64,000 bases of DNA from an uncultured archaeon (GTDB lineage Archaea > Nanobdellota > Nanobdellia > Woesearchaeales > CAIVOO01). Positions 1 through 56,414 of the stretch are shown here, piece after piece. A program made the position numbers and the translations under genes. How positions within the stretch are numbered: the first letter of the stretch is position 1; every line of letters starts with the position of its first letter. The notes under the pieces were generated by a model that ran no database searches, had not been told where the DNA came from, and saw only the letters and a list, made by a program, of their open reading frames with translations. The stretch lies in NCBI GenBank assembly GCA_903904885.1, contig CAIVED010000037.1, positions 2,032-66,031 on the forward strand. Direction: 5' to 3'.

Positions 1-1580
1 GAGTCAGAATATTTTTTTGCCCAGCTGGAAAGCACAAGGAAATGCTCCGAAGGGGTGCATTTGTTCTTGCTAACTGCCGCATAAATGTTACTGGCAGCCA
101 GGTCTTTTGCAGTTTTTCCGCAGTTAAGAATCCTGAAAATCCCTGCAGAAAGGCTTTCATTGTCTGTTGAGAGGGCCCGCGCAATAAGATACATTTTCTT
201 CGCATCAGGGTTTCCCTCGACACTCACCTTCCTGTTTGCAAACGCGCGATAGAAATGGCCCTCATCCCACCAGGAGGTTATTGCAGCATCATTGCTTGAG
301 TTTGCATTTATCATCATTGCTGTTTCATAGACTGAGGAATCCATCAAAGGCGGCGCATTGGCCTCACTCCATGCTTTGGGAAGCAGAAAAACCAAAAACA
401 GCGCCAGGATAATTGCTCCGCAGGCAAATCCTGCTTTTTTGCGGCTTGCCTTCTGGAAAAACCCGGAAACAGAATTGCACAGGCCGCAGATTCCGCCTGC
501 TGCGAATATGACCGAAGCCAAAACCAGGAAAGGAGCTGTTCTGACAGCAAACACCATTCCCGCAGCTGAAAAAGCGAGGAAAACAATCAGGTAAATCTGA
601 AAAAGCGTTTTTTTATTTTTCCGGCTGAAATTCTTCATTTCCGTGAATGAAAAAAATACACCTGCCAGGGCTGCAACCGCCACAGGCCAGCCCAAGGCTC
701 CGATAAATGAGCCCCAGTCAGAACTCCTCAGCTCTTTTATCTGAGAGCTCCAGTCAGGATATATTCCCGTTATCTCCGGCTTGAAAAGATAGGTGTACAG
801 TTTTGAATTTAAAATCTGGCCTGAAAAGAGTATTCCGCAAAATAAAACAACTGCCGCAACGGCCAGGGCAAAAAGGGCCATTTTCCTGTAGTCCTTTTTT
901 GAATAAAGCCGGGCAAGGATGTAAACCGCAAAAAAAGCTGAGGTGATAATCAGAATATAGTAATAGCCAGACCATGCTAATTTGAACACAACCAATGACA
1001 ATAAAGCCAAAACCGCAAATATTGCCCCCTGCTTTTTTGAGCCCTCCCTGAATGATTCAACTGACTTTAGCAGGAACAGCATGAAAAAAAGGGAAAGCAT
1101 TATGTTCAGCGGGCCGGTATCACTGTAGCCGGCCTTGAATATGCTGATAAGCGAAAAATGCACAGCAAATAAAAAAGATGCTATAAACCCCGCTGCGGGG
1201 CCGAATGCTTTTTTCGCCAACAGGAAGATAAGTATTATTGAAACAACCCCAAAAATAAGCGGCAGGTAAAAAATGGCAGCCATCAATGAAAACTCCGGGT
1301 TGAAAATCTTTCCCAGTGAGAGCACTGAATTCTCCAGATAAGGCAAAAGAGATGGATTTTTAACCTCCTTTCCCTCTGAAAGGTCCAGGGCCTGCTTGTA
1401 GAAAAGGTAGCCGTCAACAGAAGACGGATAAATATACCCTCCGCAACAGGTGTAAAATCCCTTCTCTGCTTCGGGGATTCCTTCCAGCTTGGATGAGAAG
1501 GATGCGAGAAAAATGTAGGCCAGAATGGGCACTAAAACCAGAAGTGCATATACAAATTTGTTAGTATTAATAGTTTTCAC
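1..1580 (-). CDS. aglB: STT3/AglB-like oligosaccharyltransferase (GT-C fold), 3' end runs off window
   Basis: Not in the ORF track. Hand translation from GTG at 1580 gives an open frame to the window edge with many TM segments, DGYLFY and GYSDT loop motifs, LAWSGYY, and WWDEGH at 255-272 (WWDxG signature), followed by RALSTDNESLSAGIFR. Confidence 0.8.
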   Translation of the reverse strand, partial: MKTINTNKFVYALLVLVPILAYIFLASFSSKLEGIPEAEKGFYTCCGGYIYPSSVDGYLFYKQALDLSEGKEVKNPSLLPYLENSVLSLGKIFNPEFSLMAAIFYLPLIFGVVSIILIFLLAKKAFGPAAGFIASFLFAVHFSLISIFKAGYSDTGPLNIMLSLFFMLFLLKSVESFREGSKKQGAIFAVLALLSLVVFKLAWSGYYYILIITSAFFAVYILARLYSKKDYRKMALFALAVAAVVLFCGILFSGQILNSKLYTYLFKPEITGIYPDWSSQIKELRSSDWGSFIGALGWPVAVAALAGVFFSFTEMKNFSRKNKKTLFQIYLIVFLAFSAAGMVFAVRTAPFLVLASVIFAAGGICGLCNSVSGFFQKASRKKAGFACGAIILALFLVFLLPKAWSEANAPPLMDSSVYETAMMINANSSNDAAITSWWDEGHFYRAFANRKVSVEGNPDAKKMYLIARALSTDNESLSAGIFRILNCGKTAKDLAASNIYAAVSKNKCTPSEHFLVLSSWAKKYSD

Positions 1581-4465: not shown

Positions 4466-4519
4466 AATTGCTTCTTGATGAGACTACGTTTCTGTTATCT
4501 CTTTTGAATAATATCTCTC

Positions 4520-4676
4520 TTGCTGGTTCTTGCGTTACTCTCCCTGTTTATTCTGCGTCTTCTGCTCAAGTGCCACGTAAGAAGTAATATTTAGCTGTCG
4601 AGCGCAACGAGACAGCTTAAAGCAGGCCTGGCAATCGAGGCAACTAGTGAAAGAAAGAAGACAGCCTAAGGCCTGC
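4520..4676 (+). repeat. dispersed structured intergenic element, copy 1 (full)
   Basis: TTGCTGGTTCTTGCGTTA-N21-CTTCTGCTCAAGTGCCACGTAAGAAG, then stems AGCTGTC/GACAGCT and GCAGGCCT/AGGCCTGC. Aligns with copies at 11926, 16768, 48178 and 56230. Confidence 0.85.
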
Positions 4677-4714
4677 CCAGAAAACGGGATTTTGTTGCAA
4701 TTAGCTAAATGATA

Positions 4715-11631: not shown

Positions 11632-11856
11632 TTATTTCTTCGCCTTCAATCCCAACAGCGCGATTACAAACACAATCGCATACATCACAAATCCATAGAC
11701 GCAGGAAGGCAGTCCGATGATGCTTGTGCATCCTCCTCCCAATGCGCAGAATTTCTGGAACAGTTCAGTGTAGCTCAGATATCCTGAGAAAGCCATTCCT
11801 GCGATGGAAATCCCAAAAATTATCTTCAATGCTGTTTTTTTGTTTTTAATGCACAT
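11632..11856 (-). CDS. small membrane protein resembling N-terminal half of VKOR family
   Basis: Two TM helices, SGYLSY..CALGGGC..GLPSCVYG. Confidence 0.55.
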   Translation of the reverse strand: MCIKNKKTALKIIFGISIAGMAFSGYLSYTELFQKFCALGGGCTSIIGLPSCVYGFVMYAIVFVIALLGLKAKK

Positions 11857-11925
11857 TTTGACACCTCTTTCTCTTTATTATGTACTTCTCTCTTTTAAAA
11901 TTTAACTGTAAAAATAGCATGATAC

Positions 11926-12179
11926 GCAGTTCTTAACATTTCTGCTTGCTGTTTATTGTCCCCTCACTGCCAGAACTGCCATAAACTGCAAGAAATGGCC
12001 TTGCCATTCACAAGAAAAGCTTCGCTTTTCTGTGCCCAGAAAACGCTTTGCGTTTTCTTGGGTTCTGCACAGAAAATGCTATGCATTTTCTTGTGCCTTC
12101 GGCAGTTAGTATAAACTTCTTGTATGGCACTCAAGCAGAAAAAGCCAAACAACTTGAAGTATAATGCAAGAACCAGCAA
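11926..12179 (-). repeat. dispersed structured intergenic element, copy 2 (full, expanded by mini-palindromes)
   Basis: TAATGCAAGAACCAGCAA at 12162-12179, GCAGTTCT/AGAACTGC stem at 11926-11979, and three bulged AGAAAA..TTTTCT palindromes at 12009-12096. Confidence 0.85.
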
Positions 12180-12233
12180 ACGGGATTTTATTATAAGAGC
12201 TAAAAAAGAAAAAAGAAGAAAATAAAATAAAAT

Positions 12234-12947
12234 TTACTGCTGCTGGTACTTCGCCATCTGGGCCTTTATGTCCTGGTTGTCCTGCGGTTCTGCCGGTAAT
12301 GTGAATACCGAATCGGAAACGCTTGTTGAGTATTCTGTCGCAGTCCTCTCAAATGTGCTGTTGTCGGAGGTTGATTTTATGTAAAGCGGAACTCCCTCCT
12401 TGGAATAGCACAGTTCAGCAGTTCCCTGGCTGTTTGCCATACTGAAGCATTTTGCCGTTGTTCCCGCTATCTGCCTTGAAGGCATCACAGCAATTTTGTA
12501 GCTGTCAATATTTCCCTCAACCTGCTCTGTCCCGGTCTGGGGCTGCTCTGACTGGTTGCCGAAAAAGACGCACATTTTCGGCATGGATGAGCATTGGTAC
12601 ATCTTGCCGTCAATCGCGAAAAGTGAAACCTGGTTGCCGTGGGAAACCATGTCGTATCTCATGTTCTTGTTTTTGAAATACATGGTCATCTTTGCCAGCT
12701 CTTCCTCGCCTTTCACATCATAGCTTACCTGGTATGTCGGAGACTTGCCCGAAATCAGGCCCGTGATAACGCCCTTCGCGTCCCCTGAAGGAACTGCTTC
12801 ATTGCCCGTAGCTGCCGGTTGAGCTTCCTTTGTTACTGCAGGCGTTCCAGCCTCCTTTGCCGCCGGCTGATTCGCGCATGAAGAAACCAAAACTATGATT
12901 GCGAAAAACAAAGAAAGAAAAATAAAAAATCGGTTTAGATTTTCCAT
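12234..12947 (-). CDS. putative secreted lipoprotein
   Basis: Hydrophobic signal ending VSSC, a P/A/T-rich linker, and a beta-rich Cys-containing domain. Confidence 0.65.
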   Translation of the reverse strand: MENLNRFFIFLSLFFAIIVLVSSCANQPAAKEAGTPAVTKEAQPAATGNEAVPSGDAKGVITGLISGKSPTYQVSYDVKGEEELAKMTMYFKNKNMRYDMVSHGNQVSLFAIDGKMYQCSSMPKMCVFFGNQSEQPQTGTEQVEGNIDSYKIAVMPSRQIAGTTAKCFSMANSQGTAELCYSKEGVPLYIKSTSDNSTFERTATEYSTSVSDSVFTLPAEPQDNQDIKAQMAKYQQQ

Positions 12948-16088: not shown

Positions 16089-16700
16089 ATGATGGCAAAG
16101 AAAAAGTCAAAATCCAAAAACGTTAGAAAAGCTGAGCCAGTCAAAAAGGCTCAAAAAAAGAAAACAAACACCGTAGGGTGGGTTATTGGCGCGATAATCG
16201 TCATCGTTATTATCATAGCGATTATCCTTCTAATGCGAGGAGTTACAAAAGCTCCAGTTGTACCTACAACTCCAACTACACCTGCTGCACCAGCGCCAAC
16301 AGAAACGACGCCTTCTGCAAAACCTGAAATAGTTGCGCAGGGACCTGAAGAAATCAAGGCCTGCACAATAAGATACGCAATCGGATGGCCTAAAAACAAG
16401 CTAGGCAATGAGGTCTGTTCAATAAGCGGAACCCAGGTTAATGCGCAGATTATGTACTCAGGAAAGGGCGACTCGTTGAGCGGAATGTGGTTCAAGATTA
16501 CAACCACTGATGGAAAGGTTCAGTACCTTAAGGACTCAACAACTGTAAAGTCCAATGAAACAAGGACCTACTCCGTTGATGTTGGCCAGAAAATAGAAGA
16601 CATGTTAGCATTGCCTATAATTGCAATCGACAATGTTGACAAGGCCTGCCTTAACCAGAGGCTTTTGGTCATAAAAGCTGAAAGCTGCGTAGCAGGATAA
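16089..16700 (+). CDS. membrane-anchored surface protein, paralog of 61875-62447
   Basis: Lys-rich N-terminus, one TM, a P/T/A linker, and a 4-Cys domain ending ACLNQRLLVIKAESC. Confidence 0.75.
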   Translation: MMAKKKSKSKNVRKAEPVKKAQKKKTNTVGWVIGAIIVIVIIIAIILLMRGVTKAPVVPTTPTTPAAPAPTETTPSAKPEIVAQGPEEIKACTIRYAIGWPKNKLGNEVCSISGTQVNAQIMYSGKGDSLSGMWFKITTTDGKVQYLKDSTTVKSNETRTYSVDVGQKIEDMLALPIIAIDNVDKACLNQRLLVIKAESCVAG

Positions 16701-16767
16701 ATTTTTTATTTTCTCTTTTATTTTTTTGTTTTATTAACTCCTTATCAGGTTTCTAACAAAAGCCCCC

Positions 16768-16903
16768 TTGCTGGTTCTTGCATTAGTCTTAATGCTCAGT
16801 TTGCTTCTTCTGCAGCGCAAGAAAAGCTTTGCTTTTCTGCGCGCAGAAAATCCCCGGGGGATTTTCTTGCGGATTGCCATGCAAGAAGTAAAGAAGTAAT
16901 ATT
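16768..16903 (+). repeat. dispersed structured intergenic element, copy 3 (5' half, with two inserted mini-palindromes)
   Basis: TTGCTGGTTCTTGCATTA-N21-CTTCTGC, insertion at 16815-16870, then TTGCCATGCAAGAAG. Confidence 0.8.
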
Positions 16904-16906
16904 AAC

Positions 16907-16993
16907 TGCGCCGACCGGGATTCGAACCCGGGTCACAGCCTGTTTGCATTCTAGTTTGGCAAGGCCGCATACTGACCACTGTACTATCGGCGC
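16907..16993 (-). tRNA. tRNA-Gly(GCC) with 15-nt intron at 37/38
   Basis: Cloverleaf GCGCCGA/TCGGCGC, T-loop TTCGAAT, and BHB with TTGC/GCAA central helix. Confidence 0.92.
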
Positions 16994-16995
16994 GC

Positions 16996-17087
16996 TGGGC
17001 CCGACCGGATTCGAACCGGTGACATACACCTTTCCTGCTTCTTTTGAAAGCTGTAAGGGTGTCGTCATACCGCTAGACCACGGGCCC
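16996..17087 (-). tRNA. tRNA-Val(TAC) with 20-nt intron at 37/38
   Basis: GGGCCCG acceptor, ACACC/GGTGT anticodon stem, TTCGAAT. The BHB central helix is imperfect. Confidence 0.9.
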
Positions 17088-19906: not shown

Positions 19907-21469
19907 GTGAAATCTAAGTATCTAAAGTCCAAAGGCAAACATAGGGCTGAAGAGAGCCAAAAAAGCCCAGACACATTTAATTATGCTGATGCCAGGGAGT
20001 TTCTGGAAGATGTAGAGGGAGAAACAGCCCAGCTCATTAAAAATAACCGGTTCACCCGGCTCAAGCAGGGGCTGGACAGGGAATCAAAGGCACTCGAAAA
20101 AGCAATAGATGATGAAACAATAACTGCATCAAGCATAAAATCCCGCCTTGACTCATTAAAGGAAAAAGCCAGAATAATCAGCGAGAATGAAAGGATTGTT
20201 CATGCAGCCAGAATTGCTGTTACAGACTTCCTAAATCCGCTTATACACGGAAATTTTGAATTTATTGCTTTTGAATATCCTATTGAAGACATGCTTCTTA
20301 ACCCTGCTCTCGCCAGATGGGCAGAAACCTCAGCAAAAGGATTTCCTGTTGGAGAAAGAATAGGTGCTACCTTTTTGCCCATGGACCACCACAGCGCTTT
20401 CTCAGGCCCTGCGGTTTTGAGGGGTTATTTTTATTCACCTGGGGAAGAAGGGCTGAGAAGATTTGGCATACCCCTGATTTACAATCCTGCAGCCGGCAGG
20501 GAGGCTGGGGAATTTGGCCGCCGCATGCTAAAGGAGAATTTTGCAGTTATGAGAGATGAAAAATGGATCCATAGCGTCATGGCAAACCGCGCAGAAATAG
20601 CATTTAAGTATTACGTTGGGCTTATTAAAGAATTGTCCAATTATGCCCAAACATTCCAGAAAAATTTCAATGCACTGACTCCTAGGAAAATCCTTGCAAG
20701 GCAAAGAAGACTGCCTAAGGAAGCGGAAAAAACAGATAGGCCATACGACCTCCAGATAGGCAGAGGAAAATACCTGCCGATTCAGGAGCAGGAATTTAAC
20801 AGCCTCTGGGCAGTCAGGGGAGACTGGGAGAGCCCCGTATTCAGGCACTCCGGGAATGAAACCGCATCTTATCTTTACAGCACCAACCGTAAAAAAGCCC
20901 TGAACTGGGCCAACATCCCAATCAGGGAAGTTGTGCACCCAAACACGCTGGAAGCCATTGCAAACAACGGATTTGAACAGGGCGTTTTTTTCACCAGCGA
21001 CGGAAACATATTCCGGGGGGATATGGCAGACTTGGTCAACCTCATATTCATATACGCAACATGCAACAATGTCCCGCCTGACAAAAATACCCGAAATGCA
21101 ATGACATACATAGGAAAGCAGCGTTACGGAAGGCATTCGCGAAAGGCAGTACCAAGAGACTGGGGTTTTGAATATCTTGACGGGTTAGAAGGCTGCAGCC
21201 AAAAAGAGATACTTGGAATAAATGCTGAAGGATGCTGCTTTATAGCATATCATTTTCCTGATAAAAACGCAGTTGTTGTTGAACCGAGCCTCAAGCCAGC
21301 AGCAACCTATGTTTTCGACGGTGACAGGTTTAAAACGCTCAGGCATGTGGACATACAGACTTTGAGAAAAATGAAACCAGATGGATTCAGGGGCAAGGTG
21401 GATCACAGGGAAGAAGAGCAAAGAAAATATCGCTGGTCTGAGGGAGTTAGCGGGCTTATCAACCAGTAA
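19907..21469 (+). CDS. hypothetical protein (520 aa)
   Basis: Long GTG-start ORF with an N-terminal coiled coil and no motif recognised. Confidence 0.7.
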   Translation: MKSKYLKSKGKHRAEESQKSPDTFNYADAREFLEDVEGETAQLIKNNRFTRLKQGLDRESKALEKAIDDETITASSIKSRLDSLKEKARIISENERIVHAARIAVTDFLNPLIHGNFEFIAFEYPIEDMLLNPALARWAETSAKGFPVGERIGATFLPMDHHSAFSGPAVLRGYFYSPGEEGLRRFGIPLIYNPAAGREAGEFGRRMLKENFAVMRDEKWIHSVMANRAEIAFKYYVGLIKELSNYAQTFQKNFNALTPRKILARQRRLPKEAEKTDRPYDLQIGRGKYLPIQEQEFNSLWAVRGDWESPVFRHSGNETASYLYSTNRKKALNWANIPIREVVHPNTLEAIANNGFEQGVFFTSDGNIFRGDMADLVNLIFIYATCNNVPPDKNTRNAMTYIGKQRYGRHSRKAVPRDWGFEYLDGLEGCSQKEILGINAEGCCFIAYHFPDKNAVVVEPSLKPAATYVFDGDRFKTLRHVDIQTLRKMKPDGFRGKVDHREEEQRKYRWSEGVSGLINQ

Positions 21470-21494
21470 TCCATACCGGAAATCTTTCATTTTC

Positions 21495-21734
21495 ATGAGC
21501 GTTGGGGAACACATACATGTATTTACAACATCAGAATGCAATTTAAACTGTAGCTATTGCTTTGGTCCGAATACGAAATATTCTGATTCCAGGCTTCCTG
21601 AGATTGCCGAGATTCTTGCACAGAATGAAGTTAAGATGGTAACCGCGGGAGGGGGAGAGCCGCGCCTGGTGCTTACATTAAAAAGCACAACCTTTAAAAA
21701 CCACCATTTTTCTTTTAAACCAATGCCCCTGTAG
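21495..21734 (+). pseudogene. truncated radical SAM gene remnant
   Basis: CNLNCSYC and GGGEP, then the frame loses similarity and runs through the tRNA-Glu promoter to a stop inside the tRNA. Confidence 0.7.
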
Positions 21735-21820
21735 TGTAGTCCGGTCAATCATGCCGCCCTTTCAATTCGGGAAACCGACAAAGCAAGGCGGCGACTCGGG
21801 TTCAAATCCCGGCGGGGGCA
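21725..21820 (+). tRNA. tRNA-Glu(TTC) with 21-nt intron at 37/38
   Basis: GCCCCTG/CGGGGGC acceptor, CCGCC/GGCGG stem, intron at 21765-21785 with CTTT/AAAG BHB helix and a GAAA tetraloop. Confidence 0.93.
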
Positions 21821-21868
21821 TATTATCTTAATAACATTTTAAGTATTTATTTGTTTTTCGGCATCATC

Positions 21869-23215
21869 ATGGCAGAGCAGGCACTCGAGGAAAGAATCAA
21901 TGACCTGAAGGATGACATTATAAGGTATGACTTTGCCGCAGACATAGTTGTCAGAATAAGGGAAAGCGAGAATATCACCCCCTTGGTTATACCTGCAATT
22001 GATGAGCTTGTCAGGTTATACTGCAGAGCAGGCAAGATAAGGAGAAAAAATAGCGTTATAGTGGTTGAAGGGAACTATTCCGCCAGAATCAATCCAGTCC
22101 ACACCTTGGGCAGACGCGTCCCTTCAACTGAATATAAGATTACACTTTTCAATAGGCGTTATTTACTCAAGGTCTTCTCAGGCTTTAAGGACTTCCCGAT
22201 TGATGTCAAAATAAGGCTGAAAAAAGGGAATCTTGAATTCGATTGGGACCTTGATGGGAATAAGCATACAAAGAGCTACAGCAAAAATGATTTCTTCTAT
22301 TACCAATTTCTCTCAGGGGATAGGCTCATCAATTCGAGCGGTGCTGCAATCAAGAGAACCCGCACGAATGGCCGTCTCAGGATAGGCAGCGATTACTGCA
22401 TATTGGGGGAGTCTAGTGGAGACCAGGACATCCTTGTTGTTTTCAGCAGAGGACATGTCTACCATTTCGATTTTTTCGGCAGAAGAATTCTTCCAGCCAT
22501 AGGCTCTCTTGAAAGGATTGAAACAAGAAAGATGATTAAGACATCGGATACTTGCGACAGAATGAAGAATCTCGACCTAGACGATTGGACGGAGAAACTC
22601 TTCAAGCAGGTTGTGCAGAGATGGCTTGATCGCCCTTTAGATTTCCAGATGAGTGCAGTTAATATAATAACTTACGGGGAATTTGCCGTGAAGACATCCA
22701 AGGCAGGTATCATCCCTTGGTACAATCACCGGCGAGATGGATCTGGCAGGAGAAACTATGCAATCAATGTTGGATATGACTGCCCATACAAGAGTGTTGT
22801 ACTGAAAGTAAAGGGGAACTATGTTTCTGTCCACGATAAGGAAGAGGTGCTCAATGCACACTGCCTGCCAGCCCCCCTCACTTTTGGCAGTCTGGGAAGA
22901 AGGTATCATATTGCGGACGATATTGGCATAATCTCAGTGAAGACATTGGAAATGAACATAACCCATCCGCGTGATAAACATGGGCTGTTTGTGGGGAGAC
23001 AGGAGTATCAATTCGGTACGGCTCATCTCAAATACGTCTTGGGATGCCCGATTGATAGCTTTGACAGGGCGGGCATTGTTGGGTTCAGAAACGGCAGGAA
23101 TACTTCATTCATAATTCTGGCAAAGAGGGGAGCTGACCTGTTTTCTTTTGATGTTGAGCATACAGGTGTTAAGGACACAGATTATCAGGGAATAAACCGC
23201 AAGATTTTAAAATAG
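21869..23215 (+). CDS. hypothetical protein (~448 aa)
   Basis: Long, apparently beta-rich ORF with no motif recognised. Confidence 0.7.
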   Translation: MAEQALEERINDLKDDIIRYDFAADIVVRIRESENITPLVIPAIDELVRLYCRAGKIRRKNSVIVVEGNYSARINPVHTLGRRVPSTEYKITLFNRRYLLKVFSGFKDFPIDVKIRLKKGNLEFDWDLDGNKHTKSYSKNDFFYYQFLSGDRLINSSGAAIKRTRTNGRLRIGSDYCILGESSGDQDILVVFSRGHVYHFDFFGRRILPAIGSLERIETRKMIKTSDTCDRMKNLDLDDWTEKLFKQVVQRWLDRPLDFQMSAVNIITYGEFAVKTSKAGIIPWYNHRRDGSGRRNYAINVGYDCPYKSVVLKVKGNYVSVHDKEEVLNAHCLPAPLTFGSLGRRYHIADDIGIISVKTLEMNITHPRDKHGLFVGRQEYQFGTAHLKYVLGCPIDSFDRAGIVGFRNGRNTSFIILAKRGADLFSFDVEHTGVKDTDYQGINRKILK

Positions 23216-23247
23216 TCGTTCAAAAAGCACAAACAAGGCGAAATATC

Positions 23248-23397
23248 GTGGTAACAGTTGAAGAGAGACTGAAAAACAAGAAGCTCACAGATTTTGAAGG
23301 CCTGTATGAGTTTGTTGTTTCAAATTCTGTAAAGGGAACGAAGCAGATGAAAAAGCAGAAGAGTGAGGAAAACAACAGGGCATTGTTTGAATTCTGA
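23248..23397 (+). CDS. small hypothetical protein (49 aa)
   Basis: Hand translation from GTG 23248, with TGATG coupling to the next gene. Confidence 0.4.
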   Translation: MVTVEERLKNKKLTDFEGLYEFVVSNSVKGTKQMKKQKSEENNRALFEF

Positions 23398-23864
23398 TGA
23401 AACAGCTGACAACACTGAAGGACTGCATCGAATGCAAGGATTGCTGCTATTACCACAGGCATTATCTCGGGCTGAGCACAATTCTCGAGAAGAACGCAAG
23501 GTTCACAAAAAAGGAGAAAGAAAAGCTGGTTGACAAAGGGAAATTTTACCAGGCAAAATGCGAGAGAAAAAAATCATTGAATTATTTTTTCTGCGATTTC
23601 AAGGATGGCGATTTGTGCCAATTGAAGGAAAAACGGCCGTTCGGCTGCAAATTGTACCCGTTCAATGTGATGAAAAACAGGGAAGGGAAACCTGTTGTCG
23701 GACTCGACAGGGACTGCCTGGGAATAAAAAACAAGACAGAGAAGCAGATAAAAGATTATGTTAAATATCTTAAGCCATTGCTTAAAAAAACAATTAAATC
23801 AAAACCATATTATGTTGAAGAATTCCAGGAAGAACTGGAGGTTATTGACTGTTTATTTCCCTAG
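23397..23864 (+). CDS. YkgJ-like Zn/Fe-chelating cysteine cluster protein
   Basis: CIECKDCC, FFCDF..LCQLKEKRPFGCKLYPF. Confidence 0.8.
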   Translation: MKQLTTLKDCIECKDCCYYHRHYLGLSTILEKNARFTKKEKEKLVDKGKFYQAKCERKKSLNYFFCDFKDGDLCQLKEKRPFGCKLYPFNVMKNREGKPVVGLDRDCLGIKNKTEKQIKDYVKYLKPLLKKTIKSKPYYVEEFQEELEVIDCLFP

Positions 23865-23935
23865 CAGTTATTTAACTACCACTAAGTGGTTAAAAACGAA
23901 AGATTTAAATACTCCTTCTTTTTTATCTTAATCCT

Positions 23936-24568
23936 ATGACAAATGAGATCGTTTTAGCAACACCTGGAGAAATATTCTCTAACCGCCCAATCATAGCATA
24001 CGACACGCTAAATGAAGCCGGCAAAATTACTGGAACAGACCCGGAAGAACTAAAGAAGAGGATAATGTTATTCGGCTTTTTAAGAGCAACAGGTTACACT
24101 TTAGTACAAGATCCTCCACGTCAAGATGGAATAATCGAAACTGTAAAAAAAGCGCCAGCCGGAGAGACTTACAAGTTTAATGCAAATGGAGGAATTATGA
24201 CCTTATCTGACAATGAAGGAGACATGTTTGTCAGGCCATACTTGGCAGTTAATGACTTCATGGATTTTTTGAGAAAATTGGGTTATGGATCGAGTTGTCA
24301 TGTAGGCACGATGATTGGACATATGATATATGCAGATAACTCCCTTCAAGATACGTATGATACTTTACAATTTTATTCCACTGCCGTAGAAGAGATGCTT
24401 GAGCAACTGAAAGAAGCGGGGGCTGATGCAAGTGTATTATTTCAGATGGCCCCTGAAACCGGAGGAGTAAAAATAGGAAGAAGGATATTTATCCCCGGAG
24501 ATATCAGTCAGAAAATAATTCAGATACCTGATTTTTCAATAACTGGTTTTCCTCAACTTCCAATGTGA
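23936..24568 (+). CDS. hypothetical protein
   Basis: 210 aa ORF with an upstream AGATTTAAAT TATA. Confidence 0.65.
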   Translation: MTNEIVLATPGEIFSNRPIIAYDTLNEAGKITGTDPEELKKRIMLFGFLRATGYTLVQDPPRQDGIIETVKKAPAGETYKFNANGGIMTLSDNEGDMFVRPYLAVNDFMDFLRKLGYGSSCHVGTMIGHMIYADNSLQDTYDTLQFYSTAVEEMLEQLKEAGADASVLFQMAPETGGVKIGRRIFIPGDISQKIIQIPDFSITGFPQLPM

Positions 24569-24570
24569 GT

Positions 24571-25245
24571 TCAGAACATCTTCTTCACAACATCAAGCGT
24601 ATAGAGAATTATCGCGTGCGCCTGCTCCTTGGACGGACTAAACGGCTCCTGCTTCTTGTGCACAGAATAAATCCTGACCTGGTTGATTAAATGAATCTGC
24701 TCGCTGATTCCCGGGTCGAAATTAAACTGCAGTTCCTTCATCTTTGCCACAAGATTCCCCAAACCTATTCCCGGGCTTGTCTCGAGAATATCCCTGCCAG
24801 TTATTTCATAGTATTTCCTGTGCAAAGCTGTTTCAAGAATCCTGCCGCAGAGGATTATTGTTGACCTGTAGCATTCATTCTCAAAGCATTTGTGCAGCTC
24901 TGCCAAATCCGCGTTCACCTCCTCTTTTATCTCAAAGGGAACTCTTGGAATTGAAAAACCCAGTTTCAGCTTTTCCTTTTTCTCCTCTTTCTCCTTGCCT
25001 TTAATTTCGTCAAGAAGAGGCAGCATTTCGCTTAGCCTGTTTTCCTTGTAAAGCTTCCAAAGCTTCAGATAGCTGTCCTCCCCAACGCTGGTTCTTATCT
25101 TATTCAGGGAGCTCTCAACAAGCTTCTTGTAATATTCAGCTCTTTGGTCTTTATAATTGCTGATATCAAACTTATCCTTAGCAATATCAAGCCTAGACGC
25201 AATTACCGCCTTTATCGCGCTGTATGCCTCTTCAGAATGTTTCAT
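24571..25245 (-). CDS. DUF4145-like (HEPN-related) domain protein
   Basis: CFENECYRSTIILCGRILETAL, NQVRIYSVH. Confidence 0.7.
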   Translation of the reverse strand: MKHSEEAYSAIKAVIASRLDIAKDKFDISNYKDQRAEYYKKLVESSLNKIRTSVGEDSYLKLWKLYKENRLSEMLPLLDEIKGKEKEEKKEKLKLGFSIPRVPFEIKEEVNADLAELHKCFENECYRSTIILCGRILETALHRKYYEITGRDILETSPGIGLGNLVAKMKELQFNFDPGISEQIHLINQVRIYSVHKKQEPFSPSKEQAHAIILYTLDVVKKMF

Positions 25246-25270
25246 GGCAATAGGAAAACAGAATGGATAT

Positions 25271-26302
25271 TTATGCTTTTCCTGTGGTGCTTATAAGGTA
25301 CTTGCTTCCGTCCGACATAATCATAACCGTGCCCTGCTCCTTGCTGTAAATCTTGACTCCCTCGGGCTTTATGCTGTCCTTGGTTAAATTGTCGTAGACA
25401 ATTATCTTAGGAGACACCGCGGAAATGATGTCCTCAGGAACATAGCCATGAACGCTAAGCACATCCGCATCTAGGCCTGAATTCTTTATTTGGTCCCAGC
25501 AAACATCCCTGCAGTCTCCAAGGAAAAGGAATGAAGCGTCCTCAAATTCCAGCTTGTATACAATTGTGTCATTTGCAGGATTCCCGTTTGACATGCCTTC
25601 CTCATAGGGAACAAATGCGCTTAGCTTAAGGCCATCCTCAATGTCAAAGACCCTGCTTTCTGTCATCGGTATTGAAGGGTATGAATATGCCTTTGCATAA
25701 TTTCTGTAGCTCCTGAATCCTGTGTAGGCGGTAGAGTAATCTATTGCTGTTGCGTATGACTGCGAGTTGTTGAAGTTGAAAATTATGCTGGAAAGCGCCC
25801 CTGAATTGGCACTGTCCGCATTTGAATCAAAAATATATTCAAACTTGGATATTCCCTTGGCCAGCAGATATTTTACAAGCCTGAGCCCGTCATTGTTCTT
25901 GCCCCCGTCGATAATGATATTTTTCTTCGTAGGGGTTCGGATAAGTATGGAATTTCCCCCGAGGTCTATGAAATCCACTGTAAGATTCCTTACACGCTCA
26001 GAATTCGTTGCGGCAGGAACAGATGAATTTTCGGTTTCGTTTGATGTGGTATTAGCTGTTAAATTAGATGAATTTGAAGAAAGGTTTGCTGAAATATTCG
26101 ATGAGATATTGGCTGAAATATTAGCAGATATATTTGAGGAAATATTCGCGGTCACGTTTGGGGTTGTGTTCTGCGGGGCAGGAACAGTTACATTTGCAGT
26201 TACATTTGTCCTGTTTATCCTGACAACCTTTATTGTCTCATTTCCTGCGCAGCCGGCTACCAAAATCGCTATCACCAACGCCAGGATGACAAATTTTCTC
26301 AT
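25271..26302 (-). CDS. ComEC/Rec2-like metallo-beta-lactamase-fold lipoprotein, metal ligands degenerate
   Basis: VAGC lipobox, Asn/Ser linker, VDFIDLGGNSILIRTP, IIDGG, NDTIVYKLEFEDASFLFLGD. The HxHxDH motif is absent. Confidence 0.75.
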   Translation of the reverse strand: MRKFVILALVIAILVAGCAGNETIKVVRINRTNVTANVTVPAPQNTTPNVTANISSNISANISANISSNISANLSSNSSNLTANTTSNETENSSVPAATNSERVRNLTVDFIDLGGNSILIRTPTKKNIIIDGGKNNDGLRLVKYLLAKGISKFEYIFDSNADSANSGALSSIIFNFNNSQSYATAIDYSTAYTGFRSYRNYAKAYSYPSIPMTESRVFDIEDGLKLSAFVPYEEGMSNGNPANDTIVYKLEFEDASFLFLGDCRDVCWDQIKNSGLDADVLSVHGYVPEDIISAVSPKIIVYDNLTKDSIKPEGVKIYSKEQGTVMIMSDGSKYLISTTGKA

Positions 26303-26335
26303 AACATTTAAAAATTGGGGTTATTTATAAAGCTT

Positions 26336-26752
26336 ATGCCGCAAGAGTTCTCAGCGGGGCTGATAGCCTTTATAAGGGCTGAAACCATTAAATTCCTGCT
26401 TCTGAAATACCCGAGGGGCTATTTCAGCTTCTCAAGGGGCGCCATTGAGCCAGGTGAAGACAGCCGGACAGCGGCCATAAGGGAATTCAGGGAAGAAACA
26501 AATCTTGAGCCGGCAAAGATATTTGACGGGTTCAAGGAGCTGGTTGGATTATTCTACAGAAAAGAGGGCAAGATAGTCCACAAGGACATAACGTTTTATC
26601 TTGCCGAGGCAAAAGAAGGTGAAATTAAATTGACAGAACATTCTGATTCTGGATGGTTCACGTTTGAGGAAGCAATGGAAAAATTGCAGTTCAAAAATGA
26701 CAAGGAAGTTCTGAAGAAGGCGAATGAGTTTCTGGAGAAGTATTACTGCTAA
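26336..26752 (+). CDS. Nudix hydrolase (Ap4A hydrolase-like)
   Basis: GAIEPGEDSRTAAIREFREETNL Nudix box. Confidence 0.9.
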   Translation: MPQEFSAGLIAFIRAETIKFLLLKYPRGYFSFSRGAIEPGEDSRTAAIREFREETNLEPAKIFDGFKELVGLFYRKEGKIVHKDITFYLAEAKEGEIKLTEHSDSGWFTFEEAMEKLQFKNDKEVLKKANEFLEKYYC

Positions 26753-28080
26753 CGTTTTTTATTTTCTTCCTGCCATTGCCTTATGTGCTTCCCAAAGTCT
26801 TTAAGCCCTGCCCACCCGCTTTTTTCAGGCTTCCACCCGAGAAACTTAAGCACAATCTCCATTGCTGCTCTGCCAGGCCCAAGGTCAAGAAGCGGCAATG
26901 AAACCAGTTCGCCGGTATCTGCCATTGCTCTTAAAGCGTTCATACCCTTCGCAAATTCTGCTTCCCACACCCTGGGAGAATAATAAACTTTGCCTTCGCC
27001 AAACAAAGTAATGCCACTAACTATATCTGACAGCAGAGGATAGTAAGGTTTGGCCGCACAGGGGGTTATTCTTAACAATGAAAACCCCTGTTCAACCTGA
27101 AGCGCAGGATAGTTTCCTCCGACATCAGGATCATCGCACAGCCTTTTGTTAAACTCCTCCCATTCTTCAGGAGTTTTCAGTTTGGTTCCAAAAACATGAT
27201 ATGCATTGCCTGATAAAACCTCTGCGGCAGGCCCAAGGCCAAAAAATGCTATAGTGTCTGTTGCATCATCACCCGACGCGCATTCTTTGAAGTCAATCAT
27301 CGGGATGTGCATGACCCGCCCATCAGACATTATAACCTTTGATGCCAGCCCCACAGCAAAATCCGGAGTTAAATTTCTTTTCTTTATCTCATCATCCAGT
27401 ATCTCGATATCAACACCGTCGTTATTTGGGACTGCTATCACTTCAAATGGGGCATTTGGCACCAATATTACATCGTCACTGTTTGTTGCCAGCCGGTTTG
27501 GGCTGTAAATAACAAAATGATATGTTTGTATATCCGGGTTGTATGGCAAAATTTGATTCAGCAGTTTTCGTGTCGATTCATTTACAATCCCCTCCCTTGC
27601 AATTATTTCCTCCAAAAAAATGTGCTCCACTGAAAAAAAGTTGTCCAATGGCGAAGGATACATTCCCTGTTCCTCCATAAAACAAGCAGTGTTATCCCAG
27701 TACGAGTCTAGAAGTTCTTCAATATTATGAGGCAGCTTTATGCTGTACAGACTGCATGCCCTGGCAAGAGAAACCGCATTAAACACCTTGCTTCCCAACT
27801 CAGATTCTTCGGTGAACTCTTTTTCAGCAATCCTGTAGCCGAGGGGTTCCAGCGCGTTTCGGATATTCTGCTTGTCTTCATCTCTGCCTAATCGCCTGAA
27901 CACAACAAGTTTTAATCCGGAATGCAAAGCGCCGGCGCAAAGACTACGATTTTTTGGTTTAATGGTAAACGCATGCTTCGAATCCCACCCAATCTCATAT
28001 CCGGGAAGAACCCTCTTTAACTGGTCGTTTACTTTAACGCCTTCTTCCAATAAGGTTCCAGGATATTGTGAAACATTCAT
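26749..28080 (-). CDS. hypothetical protein with putative AEP (primase-like) domain
   Basis: HIPMIDF, SGNAYHVFG and GFSLLRIT resemble AEP motifs I-III. Confidence 0.55.
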   Translation of the reverse strand: MNVSQYPGTLLEEGVKVNDQLKRVLPGYEIGWDSKHAFTIKPKNRSLCAGALHSGLKLVVFRRLGRDEDKQNIRNALEPLGYRIAEKEFTEESELGSKVFNAVSLARACSLYSIKLPHNIEELLDSYWDNTACFMEEQGMYPSPLDNFFSVEHIFLEEIIAREGIVNESTRKLLNQILPYNPDIQTYHFVIYSPNRLATNSDDVILVPNAPFEVIAVPNNDGVDIEILDDEIKKRNLTPDFAVGLASKVIMSDGRVMHIPMIDFKECASGDDATDTIAFFGLGPAAEVLSGNAYHVFGTKLKTPEEWEEFNKRLCDDPDVGGNYPALQVEQGFSLLRITPCAAKPYYPLLSDIVSGITLFGEGKVYYSPRVWEAEFAKGMNALRAMADTGELVSLPLLDLGPGRAAMEIVLKFLGWKPEKSGWAGLKDFGKHIRQWQEENKKR

Positions 28081-28192
28081 TTAACCACCCGGTAAAAATA
28101 AGAGAAGAGAAGATATTTAACCTTATCGCCAAAGAGGGCTAATCTTTATAAACAAAACTTCATTTTTATGAATAAAAACGAGGTGATATTAA

Positions 28193-28387
28193 ATGGCAAA
28201 AGGAAAAGATGAGTGCTGGTGCAAGTGGAAGATGAAGAAAGGCATTTGCCTGCTTGTTATTGGCGTATTGGTCTGGTTAAACGAGATGTACAGTTGGACC
28301 AGCCTGGGAAAGTTGATTGCAATCATTGCAGGTGTTCTTGGAATAATAATGATTCTCAAGGCAGCATTCTGCAAGTGCAGGAAGTAA
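28193..28387 (+). CDS. small two-TM membrane protein
   Basis: 64 aa with two hydrophobic helices, a GAGGTG RBS and a T-rich 3' flank. Confidence 0.65.
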   Translation: MAKGKDECWCKWKMKKGICLLVIGVLVWLNEMYSWTSLGKLIAIIAGVLGIIMILKAAFCKCRK

Positions 28388-28444
28388 GTTCTTTTTTATT
28401 ATTTTTTATTTTATTTCTTTTTCAAATTAAGAAAATAAAAAAAA

Positions 28445-28819
28445 TTATTTTTTTGGACTTCTGTAAACTGCCCTTGGTCCCCTTGCCCTTGGAACGCCAG
28501 GATGGCGTTTATAAACTGCGCGCATCTTAGGCGCTTTTTCTTCTGAAAATTCTATTCCCAGATGGCCTGCAGAGCGGGCCAGGCATTTGTCCCATAAGTT
28601 TGCAACTAATTCCTGGTCTCCTTCTCCTTTCTCAATCATAAGCCTATAAGCTTCTGCAAGAATTGCATATCCTCCAGGCTTATTTATTGTTAGTGCTGCA
28701 TCAAAAGCTTCCATTGGATCTTCTCTGGCAAGCAGATGCAGCTCGCTTGCTGCATTTGCAATATCCCCGACACATTGCACTGTACGATTAAAAATCCTTA
28801 AATCCTTGGCATCTCCCAT
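28445..28819 (-). CDS. hypothetical protein
   Basis: 124 aa ORF with a GGAGGG RBS. Confidence 0.55.
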   Translation of the reverse strand: MGDAKDLRIFNRTVQCVGDIANAASELHLLAREDPMEAFDAALTINKPGGYAILAEAYRLMIEKGEGDQELVANLWDKCLARSAGHLGIEFSEEKAPKMRAVYKRHPGVPRARGPRAVYRSPKK

Positions 28820-28872
28820 TATTCCCTCCCCTCTCTTGTCTCTCCAAAAGTCAGAAAAATCTATAAACCTTT

Positions 28873-29787: not shown

Positions 29788-29864
29788 AGAATCTATGAGG
29801 ATTCGTGACTTTTTAAATGTTTTTAGTATTACTTATAAACTAGAAAAACATAATAACCGCTAAA

Positions 29865-47961: not shown

Positions 47962-48085
47962 TGCGGGGGAGGAGATTCGAACTCCCGGACCCACTAAGGG
48001 ACAGGATGGCTTAAAGCCGCCAATTCAGTATTGGCTGCCCCATTTCTTAAGTCCTGCGCGTTTGACCAGACTTCGCTACCCCCGC
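47962..48085 (-). tRNA. tRNA-Leu(TAA) with 38-nt intron at 37/38
   Basis: GCGGGGG/CCCCCGC acceptor, long variable arm, intron at 48008-48045 with CTTA/TAAG BHB helix. Confidence 0.93.
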
Positions 48086-48177
48086 ATAAAGGGCATTCTT
48101 AATAGAATTTGGGAGTTTTAAAAAGGTTTTGATTATCTGTGTTATTTCTCCAATTCCTGCGAGCAAAAACCCATTTT

Positions 48178-48247
48178 CTGGTTCTTGCATTACAACTAAT
48201 GTTGGTTCGGCTTCTTCTGCTCAATTGCCATGCAAGAAATAAATATT
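48178..48247 (+). repeat. dispersed structured intergenic element, copy 4 (5' half)
   Basis: CTGGTTCTTGCATTA-N21-CTTCTGCTCAATTGCCATGCAAGAAATAAATATT. Confidence 0.8.
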
Positions 48248-49586
48248 ATTTCTTTTTAGCGAACTGGCTCTTCTTCCACACAGGAGCGTACAATTTATGC
48301 ACTTCTTTTGAATACTTGTCAATCGCTTTCCTTACCTTCTGGTCTCTGATTGGGTCGTCCGCCCCGGGATGGGTCGGATACAGATTGAATTTCTTCTCCA
48401 TTTCCCGGCTGACTTCAGGATGGTCTATCCACTGGCAGGGCAAAAATAAATTTTCATGGTAGGGCTGCCTCGCCCTCAGCGCCTTGAAGTAATCGGAATT
48501 CAAAACGTCTTTCAATGATTTGTTTTTGATGTTGTCAACCGCCATGTGGGTGAATATGCAGGGCTCCACGTCCCCTTTTGATGTGATGTGAACATACTCT
48601 TTTCCTGCGATGCAGCCGCCGACCCAGGGCGCATCGTTCCAGAAATCCACTATGAATATCGGCTTTGTTTCCCTGAGTTTCAAATCCCGGTTGTACAAAT
48701 GCAGCCTCTGCTTCGGCGTCGGCATTAGTTTCGGGTCCGGCTTTGCGCCCACAGGCATGTAAAGGAAAAACCATCCGAGATAGGCCCCTTTTTCAATCAG
48801 GAAATTGACAAACCTGTCGCTGCTGATTTCCTCTGCATTTTTGCTTGTGACCGCCGATGAAAACCCGAATGGAATTTTGTTTCTCTTCAAAATAGCCATG
48901 GCATTCATTATTTTTTTGTAAACTCCCCTGCCTCTCCTTTCATCTGTCCTTTTTTCAAATCCCTCTATGCTGAGAATCGGCAGGGCATTTCCTGTCTTCA
49001 GCAGTTTTTTTGCAACATCCTCGGTAATGAGGGTGCTGTTGGTGTAAACCTGGAAAAAAACATCTTTGTGCTTCTCAAGAATCCTGAACAGATGCGGCCA
49101 GACAAATGGTTCCCCGCCGAGAAATGTGAAAAACGCAACCCCCATTTTTTTGCCTTCTCTTACTATCCTGTCAACAACCTCAAAAGGCAAATCATCTTCT
49201 CTTGCGTATTTCATTGCATAGCAGCCGACGCATTTCAGGTTGCATCTCATGGTCGGGCTTATCAAAACAGTTGTTGGAACAGTGCCGCCTTTTTTGAACT
49301 CCCTGTTCCTTTTTTTGTAATTCATCACCAGGCCCTGGACAATGAGGTTTTCTATCAGCTTTTCCTTGTAAATCGGAGCAACATTGTCAAGTATTCTTCT
49401 TATCAGCTTGTAGCCGACAGTATTCTTTTCAATCATCTCCCTTACGCTGATTATCGCATCCTTGCTTGCCGCAGTGCTGAACTTTTCGAGAAACCGTGTT
49501 ATATTTATCAGGGTTTTATCAGAAACATTTGTTGCCTTTTTCAGAACAGCAGTTATTGCCTTCTTTTTTATGTAGTTTATTACCAT
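48246..49586 (-). CDS. radical SAM protein (SPASM/twitch-type C-terminus)
   Basis: CNLKCVGC, LGGEP, YTNSTL, GCIAG..GDVEPCIF. Confidence 0.9.
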   Translation of the reverse strand: MVINYIKKKAITAVLKKATNVSDKTLINITRFLEKFSTAASKDAIISVREMIEKNTVGYKLIRRILDNVAPIYKEKLIENLIVQGLVMNYKKRNREFKKGGTVPTTVLISPTMRCNLKCVGCYAMKYAREDDLPFEVVDRIVREGKKMGVAFFTFLGGEPFVWPHLFRILEKHKDVFFQVYTNSTLITEDVAKKLLKTGNALPILSIEGFEKRTDERRGRGVYKKIMNAMAILKRNKIPFGFSSAVTSKNAEEISSDRFVNFLIEKGAYLGWFFLYMPVGAKPDPKLMPTPKQRLHLYNRDLKLRETKPIFIVDFWNDAPWVGGCIAGKEYVHITSKGDVEPCIFTHMAVDNIKNKSLKDVLNSDYFKALRARQPYHENLFLPCQWIDHPEVSREMEKKFNLYPTHPGADDPIRDQKVRKAIDKYSKEVHKLYAPVWKKSQFAKKK

Positions 49587-56181: not shown

Positions 56182-56229
56182 GGTTGGTTAATTTTATTCT
56201 TTTATTACCAAAACAAACTATTTATTTTG

Positions 56230-56392
56230 GCAGTTCTTATTTTTTATTGTTGTTCCAATACTTGCCCTGATTGCCAGAACTGCCTTAACTTGACTCACTT
56301 CTCTGCGCTCGTCAAGTAAATATTTTTTCTTGCGCATGGCATTCGAGCAGAAGAATCAAGCTAAACCTGGATGGTAATGCAAGAACCAGCAA
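56230..56392 (-). repeat. dispersed structured intergenic element, copy 5 (full)
   Basis: TAATGCAAGAACCAGCAA at 56375-56392, stems ACTTGAC/GTCAAGT (56288-56317) and GCAGTTCT/AGAACTGC (56230-56283). Confidence 0.85.
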
Positions 56393-56414
56393 ACGTAATT
56401 TTAATTTAAAGCAA

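Follow-up and report, generated by a model that had tools for sequence, protein, structure and literature searches.

In a 64,000-nucleotide (nt) stretch of DNA from an uncultured archaeon (contig CAIVED010000037.1, positions 2,032 to 66,031; hereafter the window), five intergenic positions beside gene 3' ends carry related sequences containing complementary stems, which raises the question of what kind of element these copies represent and what it does there. The original prediction, made from the sequence alone, described an element of ~160 nt and offered two explanations for it, an undescribed non-coding RNA or 3' untranslated element and a non-autonomous mobile hairpin element. The element is a multi-copy, lineage-restricted repeat of ~200 nt, present in different subsets of related genomes. 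We think there is about an even chance that it is a non-autonomous structured repeat acting as a 3'-end or terminator cassette at gene 3' ends.

Copy number and extent of the repeat

When one mismatch is allowed, the 18-mer shared by the copies (block A, TTGCTGGTTCTTGCATTA) has five matches in the window (4520+, 12179-, 16768+, 48175+ and 56392-), against 0.12 expected in a shuffled window; none of 100 shuffles attains five. A covariance model (CM) built from 11 full copies also returns exactly five window copies and no other down to E=0.01. By both measures the five copies originally predicted are real. Their plus-strand start positions agree with those found here (48178 against 48175), whereas the predicted positions 11926 and 56230 are the left ends of minus-strand copies. 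Three window copies are full (c1, c2 and c5) and two are truncated (c3 and c4), at a density of one copy per ~13 kb, and identity among copies of one genome is only ~65-70%. Each of the five adjoins at least one gene 3' end, as had been claimed. The predicted size fell short by some 40 nt because the element also includes a 3' T-run tail and, at its 5' end, a conserved box (AATAAAAAyCCCGTTTGC).

Copies beyond the window, which the original prediction had proposed to look for, are present in sediment metagenomes and in relatives. A degenerate pattern located 12 true copies in JGI lake-sediment metagenomes (L096, L097, L099, L100, L102, L105, L107, L121, L124, L126, L134 and L136), all supported by the covariance model at 82-211 bits; the remaining matches in these metagenomes fell in a marine phage coding region or were due to chance. 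One further copy lies at an orthologous site in an 86% relative (L186), a divergent copy in the metagenome-assembled genome (MAG) CAZAIK01 (seen as L163/L168), and a decayed copy at an orthologous site in L161. Two of the metagenome copies, L096 and L124, are truncated like c3 and c4. In L013, L014, L107, L121 and L136 the contig ends fall within a copy, as is usual for multi-copy repeats in short-read assemblies. Among GTDB representative genomes, in which the lineage itself is not represented, exact and degenerate patterns gave chance matches only, plus the divergent CAZAIK01 copy.

Anatomy of the element

The anatomy was derived from an alignment of the 11 full copies. At the 5' end the A-rich box is followed by TGG. 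Stem 1 (TTCTTGCAT/ATGCAAGAA, with TTCTTGCGT/ACGTAAGAA instead in c1) encloses TTA, a T-rich segment of 21-23 nt, an invariant CTTCTGC, 5 nt and TGCC, after which comes the 3' arm, and an AT-rich linker (ATAAATATTTA) joins it to stem 2. Stem 2 is a 7-bp helix of free sequence (variants AGCTGTC/GACAGCT, ACTTGAC/GTCAAGT and AACTGC/GCAGTT) whose tip accepts 0-4 inserted mini-hairpins, and is followed by TTAAAG. Stem 3 occurs as GCAGGCCT/AGGCCTGC or as GCAGTTCT/AGAACTGC, the latter being the alignment form together with GCAgTTCT/AGAAcTGC. Its loop of ~39 nt begins CTGGCAAT-N3-GGCAA and holds a GCAAGAA-like word. On the 3' side of stem 3 lie GCC, an A-rich stretch and a T-run such as GGGTTTTTGTTTTT. 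The invariant or near-invariant unpaired blocks are TGGTTCTTGCATTA, CTTCTGC, TGCC, CTGGCA and TAAG. All stem pairings quoted in the original prediction read as stated in the sequence.

The T-rich segment within stem 1, here called the spacer, had been described as unrelated between copies. The spacers are in fact homologous, with a pairwise identity of 55% compared with 39 +/- 8% for shuffled spacers. They are 49% T, evolve faster than the rest, have lengths of 21, 22 and 23 nt, and fall into recognisable subgroups (..TCCCTGTTTA.. and ..TCAAAGTTG..). A role of the spacer as a guide RNA was considered and is ruled out by this homology between copies, the T-richness and the range of lengths.

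The mini-hairpins, which were not part of the original prediction, are ~30 nt long and have the form (G/C)xCA(A)GAAAAnGC-loop-GCnTTTTCT(T)Gx(G/C). Five occur in the window, three at the stem 2 tip of c2 and two in module 1 of c3; a possible fourth hairpin in c2 (AATGGC-AA-GGCCATT) is of another type. In L186 the copy carries two, at its stem 2 tip, and two or three related CAGAAA-type mini-hairpins lie beside the decayed copy of L161. A bulged base orients each mini-hairpin, and adjacent ones alternate in orientation. When ~250 kb of related sequence was scanned, typical mini-hairpins were confined to the inside or the vicinity of the large element, and two atypical GAAAA...TTTTC hairpins lay outside it, in L163 and L136. 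The tip of stem 2 is a permissive site for such nested mini-hairpins.

Covariation of the stems

RNAalifold, run on a MAFFT alignment of the 11 full copies, recovered the three predicted stems unprompted, with 95.8% of 264 cells paired. Nine pairs, in 25 cells, change on both sides, and none of 500 column shuffles attains the observed values. Sliding the 3' partners by 1-3 columns leaves only 0-2 pairs with changes on both sides. These pair counts leave out an alignment made with the covariance model, in which sense and antisense were mixed, and a MAFFT alignment that misregisters stem 2 of L186.

Stems 2 and 3 are under selection for pairing, with two-sided changes in 5/7 pairs of stem 2 and 3/8 pairs of stem 3. 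Stem 1 is nearly invariant, with one compensation in c1 (to G-C) and an inner-end mismatch in four copies; the divergent L163 copy provides a second compensation, TCCTGC/GCAGGA for TCTTGC/GCAAGA. The proposal that selection acts on structure rather than sequence goes too far: pairing is selected in stems 2 and 3, but stem 1 hardly covaries and several unpaired blocks are invariant or nearly so.

Two further pairings were considered. A helix closing the 5' box with the 3' tail would be 61% paired, a value attained by 63 of 500 shuffles and lying within the 49-67% of slid registers. An attenuator-like switch, in which block C would pair with the 5' arm of stem 3, was rejected because the stem 3 changes of c1 are compensated in the 3' arm and not in block C.

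The functional strand had been called ambiguous and stays so: 9 G-U cells stand against 4 A-C cells over the whole structure, and the consensus energy is -25.2 kcal/mol for the forward and -24.5 kcal/mol for the reverse strand. The forward strand is the more stable in 7/11 single sequences, and stems 2 and 3 alone contain 6 G-U and 1 A-C cells.

Gain, loss and maintenance at orthologous sites

Four orthologous sites were compared, namely the HIT-gene, pyruvate:ferredoxin oxidoreductase (POR) beta, c4 and S-layer 3' ends, and at three of them presence is patchy with clean empty sites. The HIT-gene site is filled in L134, L107 and L126, where the element starts at the stop codon and the consensus 5' box supplies the TAA, and is empty in L180, L181-183, L177-179 and L176. 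In the empty alleles of L176, L181 and L182 the factor B recognition element (BRE) and TATA box of the downstream tRNA gene come immediately after the stop codon. L180 has a similar BRE/TATA-like word after the stop, ahead of a protein gene, and in L177-179 a convergent gene lies 50 nt beyond the stop. In the filled alleles the promoter word TAGAAAT.TTTATAAA survives downstream of the insert. For this site a protein tree calls for at least two gains or, with a single gain, three or more losses, and the copies occupying it belong to differing spacer subgroups.

The POR-beta site is filled in the window, by c5, and in the 86% relative L186, and is empty in L184 (89% relative; 6 nt to the next gene), L188 (78%) and L015 (75%). 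The L186 copy differs from c5 in stem 2 (AGCTAC/GTAGCT instead of ACTTGAC/GTCAAGT), in having two extra mini-hairpins and in its c2-like 3' end (CTGCGTATCAT), from which it follows that the copies are mosaic or were inserted independently. At the c4 site, L184 and L188 are empty, with a tRNA promoter 11 nt past the stop codon in L188.

At the S-layer site, c1 and the L161 copy have the upstream flank GCTTCTTGATG..ACTA.G in common and hence derive from one insertion. Block C and stems 2 and 3 are gone from the L161 copy, while c1 retains all three stems through compensatory changes. L163 carries a full copy inverted at the same intergenic site. Over ~21 kb of L161 that is syntenic with window positions 1-18 kb, one decayed copy is present compared with three copies in the window.

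The element is gained and lost between related genomes, given its patchy presence at orthologous sites with clean empties, the one inverted copy and the contigs that break within copies. The hairpins are kept by compensatory change, including in the old copy c1, which stayed in place.

A second repeat family is found in L161, a 72%-identity relative, as two direct copies (597-676 and 12089-12200; ~70-110 nt, 97% identical) with a 10-bp inverted repeat CAAGAACCAC/GTGGTTCTTG around the hairpin CACCTGC-TTTA-GCAGGTG. It occupies sites orthologous to c3 and c1, has only GGTTCTTG in common with the window element, and was not found when looked for in the window. Spacers that hold the element in the window carry accessory genes in relatives, among them a PIN/RHH pair, Fic, PemK and HicAB modules and a response regulator (L161:11294-11962, L159:3693-5972 and L184:1982-2398); the window has its own Fic gene elsewhere (35989-36936). 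Across this lineage, the 3' junctions of genes appear to be general hot spots of insertion.

Position of the copies and a possible role at transcript ends

Most copies lie between convergent gene ends or 0-80 nt from a stop codon. Where the flanking genes run in tandem, c2 and two HIT insertions read in the same direction as these genes, and c4 and the L163 copy in the opposite one; since both orientations occur there and convergent spacers are uninformative, no clear orientation bias is seen. A T-run of 4-7 follows stem 3 within 35 nt in 12/12 full copies. The 5' box of nearly all copies has an A-run of 4-6, equivalent to a T-run on the opposite strand (GGGATTTTTATTTT). In the antisense reading of c4, the upstream gene acquires stem 1 and then GGGTTTTTG.

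In the promoters of the window's tRNA and protein genes, the TATA box is of the type TTTAWAWA and has an A-rich BRE upstream of it. Upstream of 16 copies, TATA-like words are missing or stand at varying distances, and conservation sets in abruptly ~20 nt before the TGG. The copies are without a promoter of their own. An independent archaeal small RNA gene with BRE/TATA ~25 nt upstream is therefore disfavoured for want of a fixed-distance TATA; the oligo-T tail expected of one is present.

In the reading that we favour, a ~200-nt non-autonomous interspersed repeat would have colonised gene 3' ends in one uncultured Woesearchaeota-like lineage and would be transcribed as the 3' end of whichever adjacent gene reads into it. 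Because the stems are near-palindromic and each end has a T-run on one strand (GGGTTTTTGTTTTT at the far end of one, and the complement of the 5' box at that of the other), a transcript arriving from either side would gain hairpins and then an oligo-U tract. The repeat may thereby serve as a portable bidirectional terminator or 3'-end-protecting cassette, acting like the bacterial repetitive extragenic palindromic (REP) sequences and their mosaic clusters (bacterial interspersed mosaic elements, BIMEs), or like BOX or Correia elements.

Several points weigh against such a cassette. Transcription, the 3' ends and any stabilising effect are what we infer from sequence. Folded singly, c1 (z -0.35) and c5 (z -1.47) do no better than shuffles, so that the evidence for structure is comparative and not thermodynamic. 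Copies c1-c3 lie downstream of strong oligo-T tracts that are expected to end the upstream gene already, which would make a cassette unneeded at these positions, and to our knowledge archaeal termination requires no hairpin. Loops of ~40 nt with invariant unpaired blocks are unexplained by a simple terminator or stabiliser and suggest a specific protein or RNA partner. The T- and A-runs, which are common in these AT-rich intergenic spacers, could reflect target preference rather than function. Neither a mobilising enzyme (in the window) nor a terminal repeat or target duplication was found, and the case for mobility is consequently one of presence and absence.

A bolder proposal, which we hold to be quite improbable, is that of a structured nucleic acid of a new kind that is mobile in archaea. 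Lacking terminal repeats, target duplication and a recognisable transposase, it would spread, perhaps by way of an RNA or single-stranded DNA (ssDNA) intermediate that an uncharacterised enzyme reads, and would land within a few bases of stop codons in A/T tracts. The invariant loops (CTTCTGC and CTGGCAAT..GGCAA) would be the recognition or catalytic core of its enzyme, and host selection would keep the hairpins as 3'-end modules.

Alternative explanations

The patchy presence, and the clean empty sites that retain the ancestral stop-codon/promoter junction, would also be left by a purely selfish element with no host function. Its hairpins and invariant blocks would be ssDNA cis-signals for a recombinase encoded elsewhere (HUH/Y1 of the REP-associated tyrosine transposase (RAYT) or IS200/IS605 TnpA type, or other), and the location at gene ends would reflect tolerated insertions. 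The lack of target duplication and terminal inverted repeat is shared with IS200/IS605 and REP systems, and the mosaic L186 copy at the c5 site, the different spacer subgroups at one HIT site, the BIME-like alternation of the mini-hairpins, the second 97%-identical family with GGTTCTTG at orthologous sites in L161 and the greater tolerance of G-T than of A-C on one strand all fit such an element. However, copies that resemble each other this little within a genome speak against a recent burst, and the pairing of c1 was kept by in-place compensation while its L161 orthologue decayed, which argues for selection at the locus. The stems, with their ~40-nt loops, are unlike the compact hairpins that such enzymes recognise, and a GTAG-type head is missing. 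The scanned window open reading frames (ORFs) include no Y1_Tnp, TnpB or DDE gene, although 64 kb cannot exclude one elsewhere. A purely selfish element, the main alternative to the cassette, is a possibility that we consider somewhat unlikely. Non-coding RNA genes or cis-regulatory RNA domains, which would bind a partner via the invariant loops and descend vertically with occasional duplication, would account for the mosaic of invariant unpaired blocks beside covarying helices. They would also suit RNA-like details of stem 2 (tandem GA/GA flanks, GCAA and GAA(G) loops), a helix tip that acts as an expansion segment, and the lean towards one strand in G-U cells and minimum free energy noted above. 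This reading is made decidedly unlikely by the close relatives without a copy at the same sites, the truncated copies, the high copy density, the occurrence of both orientations in tandem contexts, the absence of a promoter at a fixed distance and the lack of a matching Rfam family. With regard to the two original explanations, an independent non-coding RNA gene is thus disfavoured for lack of a fixed TATA, and a mobile non-autonomous repeat is favoured by the patchy orthologous presence.

The remaining two readings dispense with a folded single strand. Each element has four to six occurrences of 6-8-nt words (TTCTTGC/GCAAGAA and TGGCAA/TTGCCA), with both orientations represented, and these words also appear in the mini-hairpins and in the second L161 repeat family (GGTTCTTG), as might be the case if a chromosomal or regulatory protein bound the element as an array of double-stranded DNA sites and the apparent stems were inverted half-sites. 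Such a protein would conserve sequence and not complementarity, whereas stem 2 keeps its pairing with no conserved sequence and the arms of stem 3 change together; no candidate protein is known either, and we regard an array of this kind as very unlikely. In all five window copies a reading frame is open from TTG CTG GTT CTT GCA TTA for ~25-55 codons, and a 71-aa ORF is listed in c2, which could indicate a small hydrophobic peptide (LLVLAL...) such as a type I toxin. With spacers of 21, 22 and 23 nt, however, copies are out of frame with one another, the frame of block C differs between c3 and c4, c4 has TTT in place of the TTG start, no ribosome-binding site is present, and T-richness by itself yields hydrophobic codons. 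The frame is inconsistent across 17 copies, which refutes the small hydrophobic ORF and leaves a peptide with a negligible probability.

Relation to known repeat families

A search of the window against Rfam 15 at the gathering threshold returned 4 tRNAs only, and c1 and c5 searched at E<=10 gave a single chance match of 17.6 bits (gathering score 52) and no omega-RNA or HEARO; a match to a known Rfam family, which would have spoken against a new element, was thus not obtained. Plasmid and phage BLAST searches and a viral scan (IMG/VR) gave no match to the element; insertion sequence (IS) ends were not among the things compared. No Y1_Tnp, TnpB, DDE or other transposase was detected among ~60 window ORFs scanned with Pfam or NCBIfam, a search that, at 64 kb, cannot exclude one elsewhere.

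The original prediction had likened the element to REPs, miniature inverted-repeat transposable elements (MITEs) and palindrome-associated transposable elements (PATEs), and the hallmarks of these groups, a GTAG head, terminal inverted repeats, target duplication or an HUH gene in the window, are lacking. The REP head GT[AG]G does not occur at a fixed position beside any stem in the alignment. Terminal inverted repeats of the MITE type are absent, the ends pairing no better than shuffles and local alignments yielding only A/T low-complexity sequence. For target-site duplication, the mean direct-repeat score of a copy's own flanks was 6.75, compared with 6.57 +/- 1.36 between copies; suggestive duplications in L105 (TCAACAAAAT) and L100 (TTTTTTTAATAAA) fall within this between-copy background. 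Precise empty sites, with neither terminal repeats nor target duplications, would suit a PATE, but no fixed target word is definable. An integron attC site was rejected, as no R''/R' core motif is visible in the alignment (no intI-specific search was made) and the flanks are syntenic core genes in mixed orientation; the genes flanking copies include S-layer, GINS, POR, HIT/topo VI and tRNA genes.

Structured interspersed repeats are well known in bacteria, and several resemble the present element in part. REPs are co-transcribed and are reported to stabilise upstream mRNA and to act in termination. Like the REP/BIME systems of Enterobacteria and Pseudomonas, which are mobilised in association with RAYT, the element is found at the 3' ends of genes, in many cases between convergent ones, and retains its hairpins by compensatory change as the sequence drifts; the alternating clusters of BIMEs also have a counterpart in its ~30-nt mini-hairpins. 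Unlike a REP, which is a single 20-40-nt palindrome, it is a ~200-nt unit with three different hairpins and large conserved loops, in an archaeal host, and it has no GTAG-like head, no RAYT in the window and no sequence similarity to REPs. The nested mini-hairpins fit a REP in size and shape but occur only within the large element, which itself does not.

BOX elements of Streptococcus pneumoniae (boxA-boxB(n)-boxC) are modular ~100-300-nt intergenic repeats with a predicted stable fold and no transposase of their own. The variable number of an internal module is a shared property, whereas the sequence is unrelated, the host of BOX is bacterial, and the ends A and C of BOX pair, the corresponding closing helix being unsupported here. 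Correia elements (NEMIS, Neisseria) and ERIC/IRU (Enterobacteria) are structured, co-transcribed repeats of 100-150 nt with a patchy distribution between strains, and can supply terminators or promoters or alter mRNA stability. These differ in having long terminal inverted repeats and, in Correia, a TA target duplication, neither of which was found here. PATEs of the IS200/IS605 group and relatives of omega-RNA/TnpB are alike in lacking terminal inverted repeats and target duplications and in having structured ends and precise-looking empty sites. The present element differs from them in its very large hairpin loops, in having no TnpA/TnpB in the window and no Rfam omega-RNA/HEARO match, and in a variable segment that is internal and homologous between copies, so that there is no flanking guide.

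By its testable features the element is outside REP/RAYT, MITE, PATE, attC and any Rfam family. It is best placed, as an uncatalogued member, among the structured interspersed repeats, which are a known class. In the literature searched on archaea, including those of the DPANN type, no structured interspersed repeat of this kind was found described; a 2025 survey (PMC12306157) notes only generically that REP-like palindromes occur in archaea.

If the cassette reading is correct, the repeat would constitute an RNA or ssDNA structure family supported by covariation and suited to curation of the Rfam type. Archaeal termination signals are usually seen as bare oligo-T, and the repeat would probably add to them a portable 3'-end or terminator module. 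It would further mark recent genome flux in a lineage with metagenomic sequence only, account for assembly breaks at copies and offer a concrete starting point for finding a mobilising enzyme. If only selfish, it would be an ordinary repeat that was previously uncatalogued.

The window copies and their surroundings

Table 1. Coordinates of the five window copies and of their parts
Feature	Position	Strand	Evidence
Copy 1 (c1), full	4502..4704	+	CM 200 bits, E=1.4e-38; sequence; neighbouring proteins
c1 5' box (decayed)	4502-4519	+	
c1 stem 1	4527-4535 / 4575-4583	+	
c1 stem 2	4593-4599 / 4611-4617	+	
c1 stem 3	4622-4629 / 4669-4676	+	
c1 tail GAAAACGGGATTTTGTTGC	4680-4698	+	
Copy 2 (c2), full	11897..12197	-	CM 154 bits; sequence; fold z-score -5.4
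Three tandem ~30-nt mini-hairpins nested in c2	12009..12095	-	Hairpin scans; mixed orientation, two vs one
Copy 3 (c3), truncated	16750..16906	+	CM 51.7 bits; sequence; tRNA positions
Copy 4 (c4), module 1 only (5' box, stem 1, spacer)	48157..48254	+	CM 87 bits; sequence; hairpin; empty site in L188
Copy 5 (c5), full	56202..56410	-	CM 187 bits; sequence; identical copy in L013 and L014

Copy c1 sits between the stops of the S-layer gene (4437) and a convergent radical-SAM gene (4715). Copy c2, whose fold z-score is due to its mini-hairpins, is downstream of gene 12234-12947(-) and upstream of a small ORF, 11632-11856(-). Copy c3 consists of module 1 and the 5' arm of stem 2, with its two mini-hairpins (16816-16871) between CTTCTGC and TGCCATGCAAGAA; it stops at AACTGC, flush with the 3' end of a tRNA gene (16907-16993, -). 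In c4, block C forms a local hairpin with the sequence after it, AAGAAATAA-ATA-TTATTTCTT, followed by TTTT and, by the hairpin scan, of the mini-hairpin kind; this copy is antisense to a SPASM radical-SAM gene (48246-49586, -) and a tRNA gene (47962-48085, -). The 5' box of c5 begins ~12 nt past the stop of the POR beta gene (56415-57329, -), and the copy is convergent with a rubrerythrin-like gene (55849-56181, +).

The tRNA genes of the window, 16907-16993(-), 16996-17087(-), 21725-21820(+) and 47962-48085(-), are 87-124 nt long and probably contain introns. All four were found with Rfam, and ARAGORN finds two, one with an undetermined anticodon. Genes or promoters of tRNAs adjoin c3, c4 and, elsewhere, the HIT-site copies.

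The window is archaeal in content, with probably intron-bearing tRNAs, GINS, eIF2-alpha, L44e/S27e, SRP54/FtsY, prefoldin and an S-layer protein, and has a GC content of 43.8%. Two of its proteins have their nearest named relatives in 'Candidatus Woesearchaeota' or 'Nanoarchaeota' MAGs, at 50-65% identity, and the closest representative genome is CAZAIK01, at 68-75% protein identity. CAZAIK01 (GCA_964485195.1; L163/L015/L168) is titled 'uncultured Methanosarcinales archaeon', a label that may be wrong, the closest named relatives of its proteins being from Woesearchaeota/Nanoarchaeota.

A 92-nt inverted repeat, 78% complementary, connects window positions 16638-16729 and 61843-61934. It spans the 3' ends and T-rich tracts of the apparent paralogues 16089-16700(+), which has no Pfam match in the scan, and 61875-62447(-). 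In the region 19907-30829, around the tRNA-Glu gene at 21725 and beyond it, most ORFs lack a family assignment; an AEP-like primase (26749-28080) and a PrimPol-like protein (28873-29787) are encoded there. NUDIX, PrimPol, PP-loop ATPase and Lhr genes are tightly packed in the 78% relative L188, and the window seems to hold extra inserted genes; the region may be an integrated element. What appeared to be a 1-kb ORF-free gap upstream of the S-layer gene is really an AglB/STT3 oligosaccharyltransferase homologue, 3-1505(-), which is cut by the window start. It occupies a single frame, diverges in orientation from the S-layer gene and is 43% identical to an L161 gene over 502 aa.

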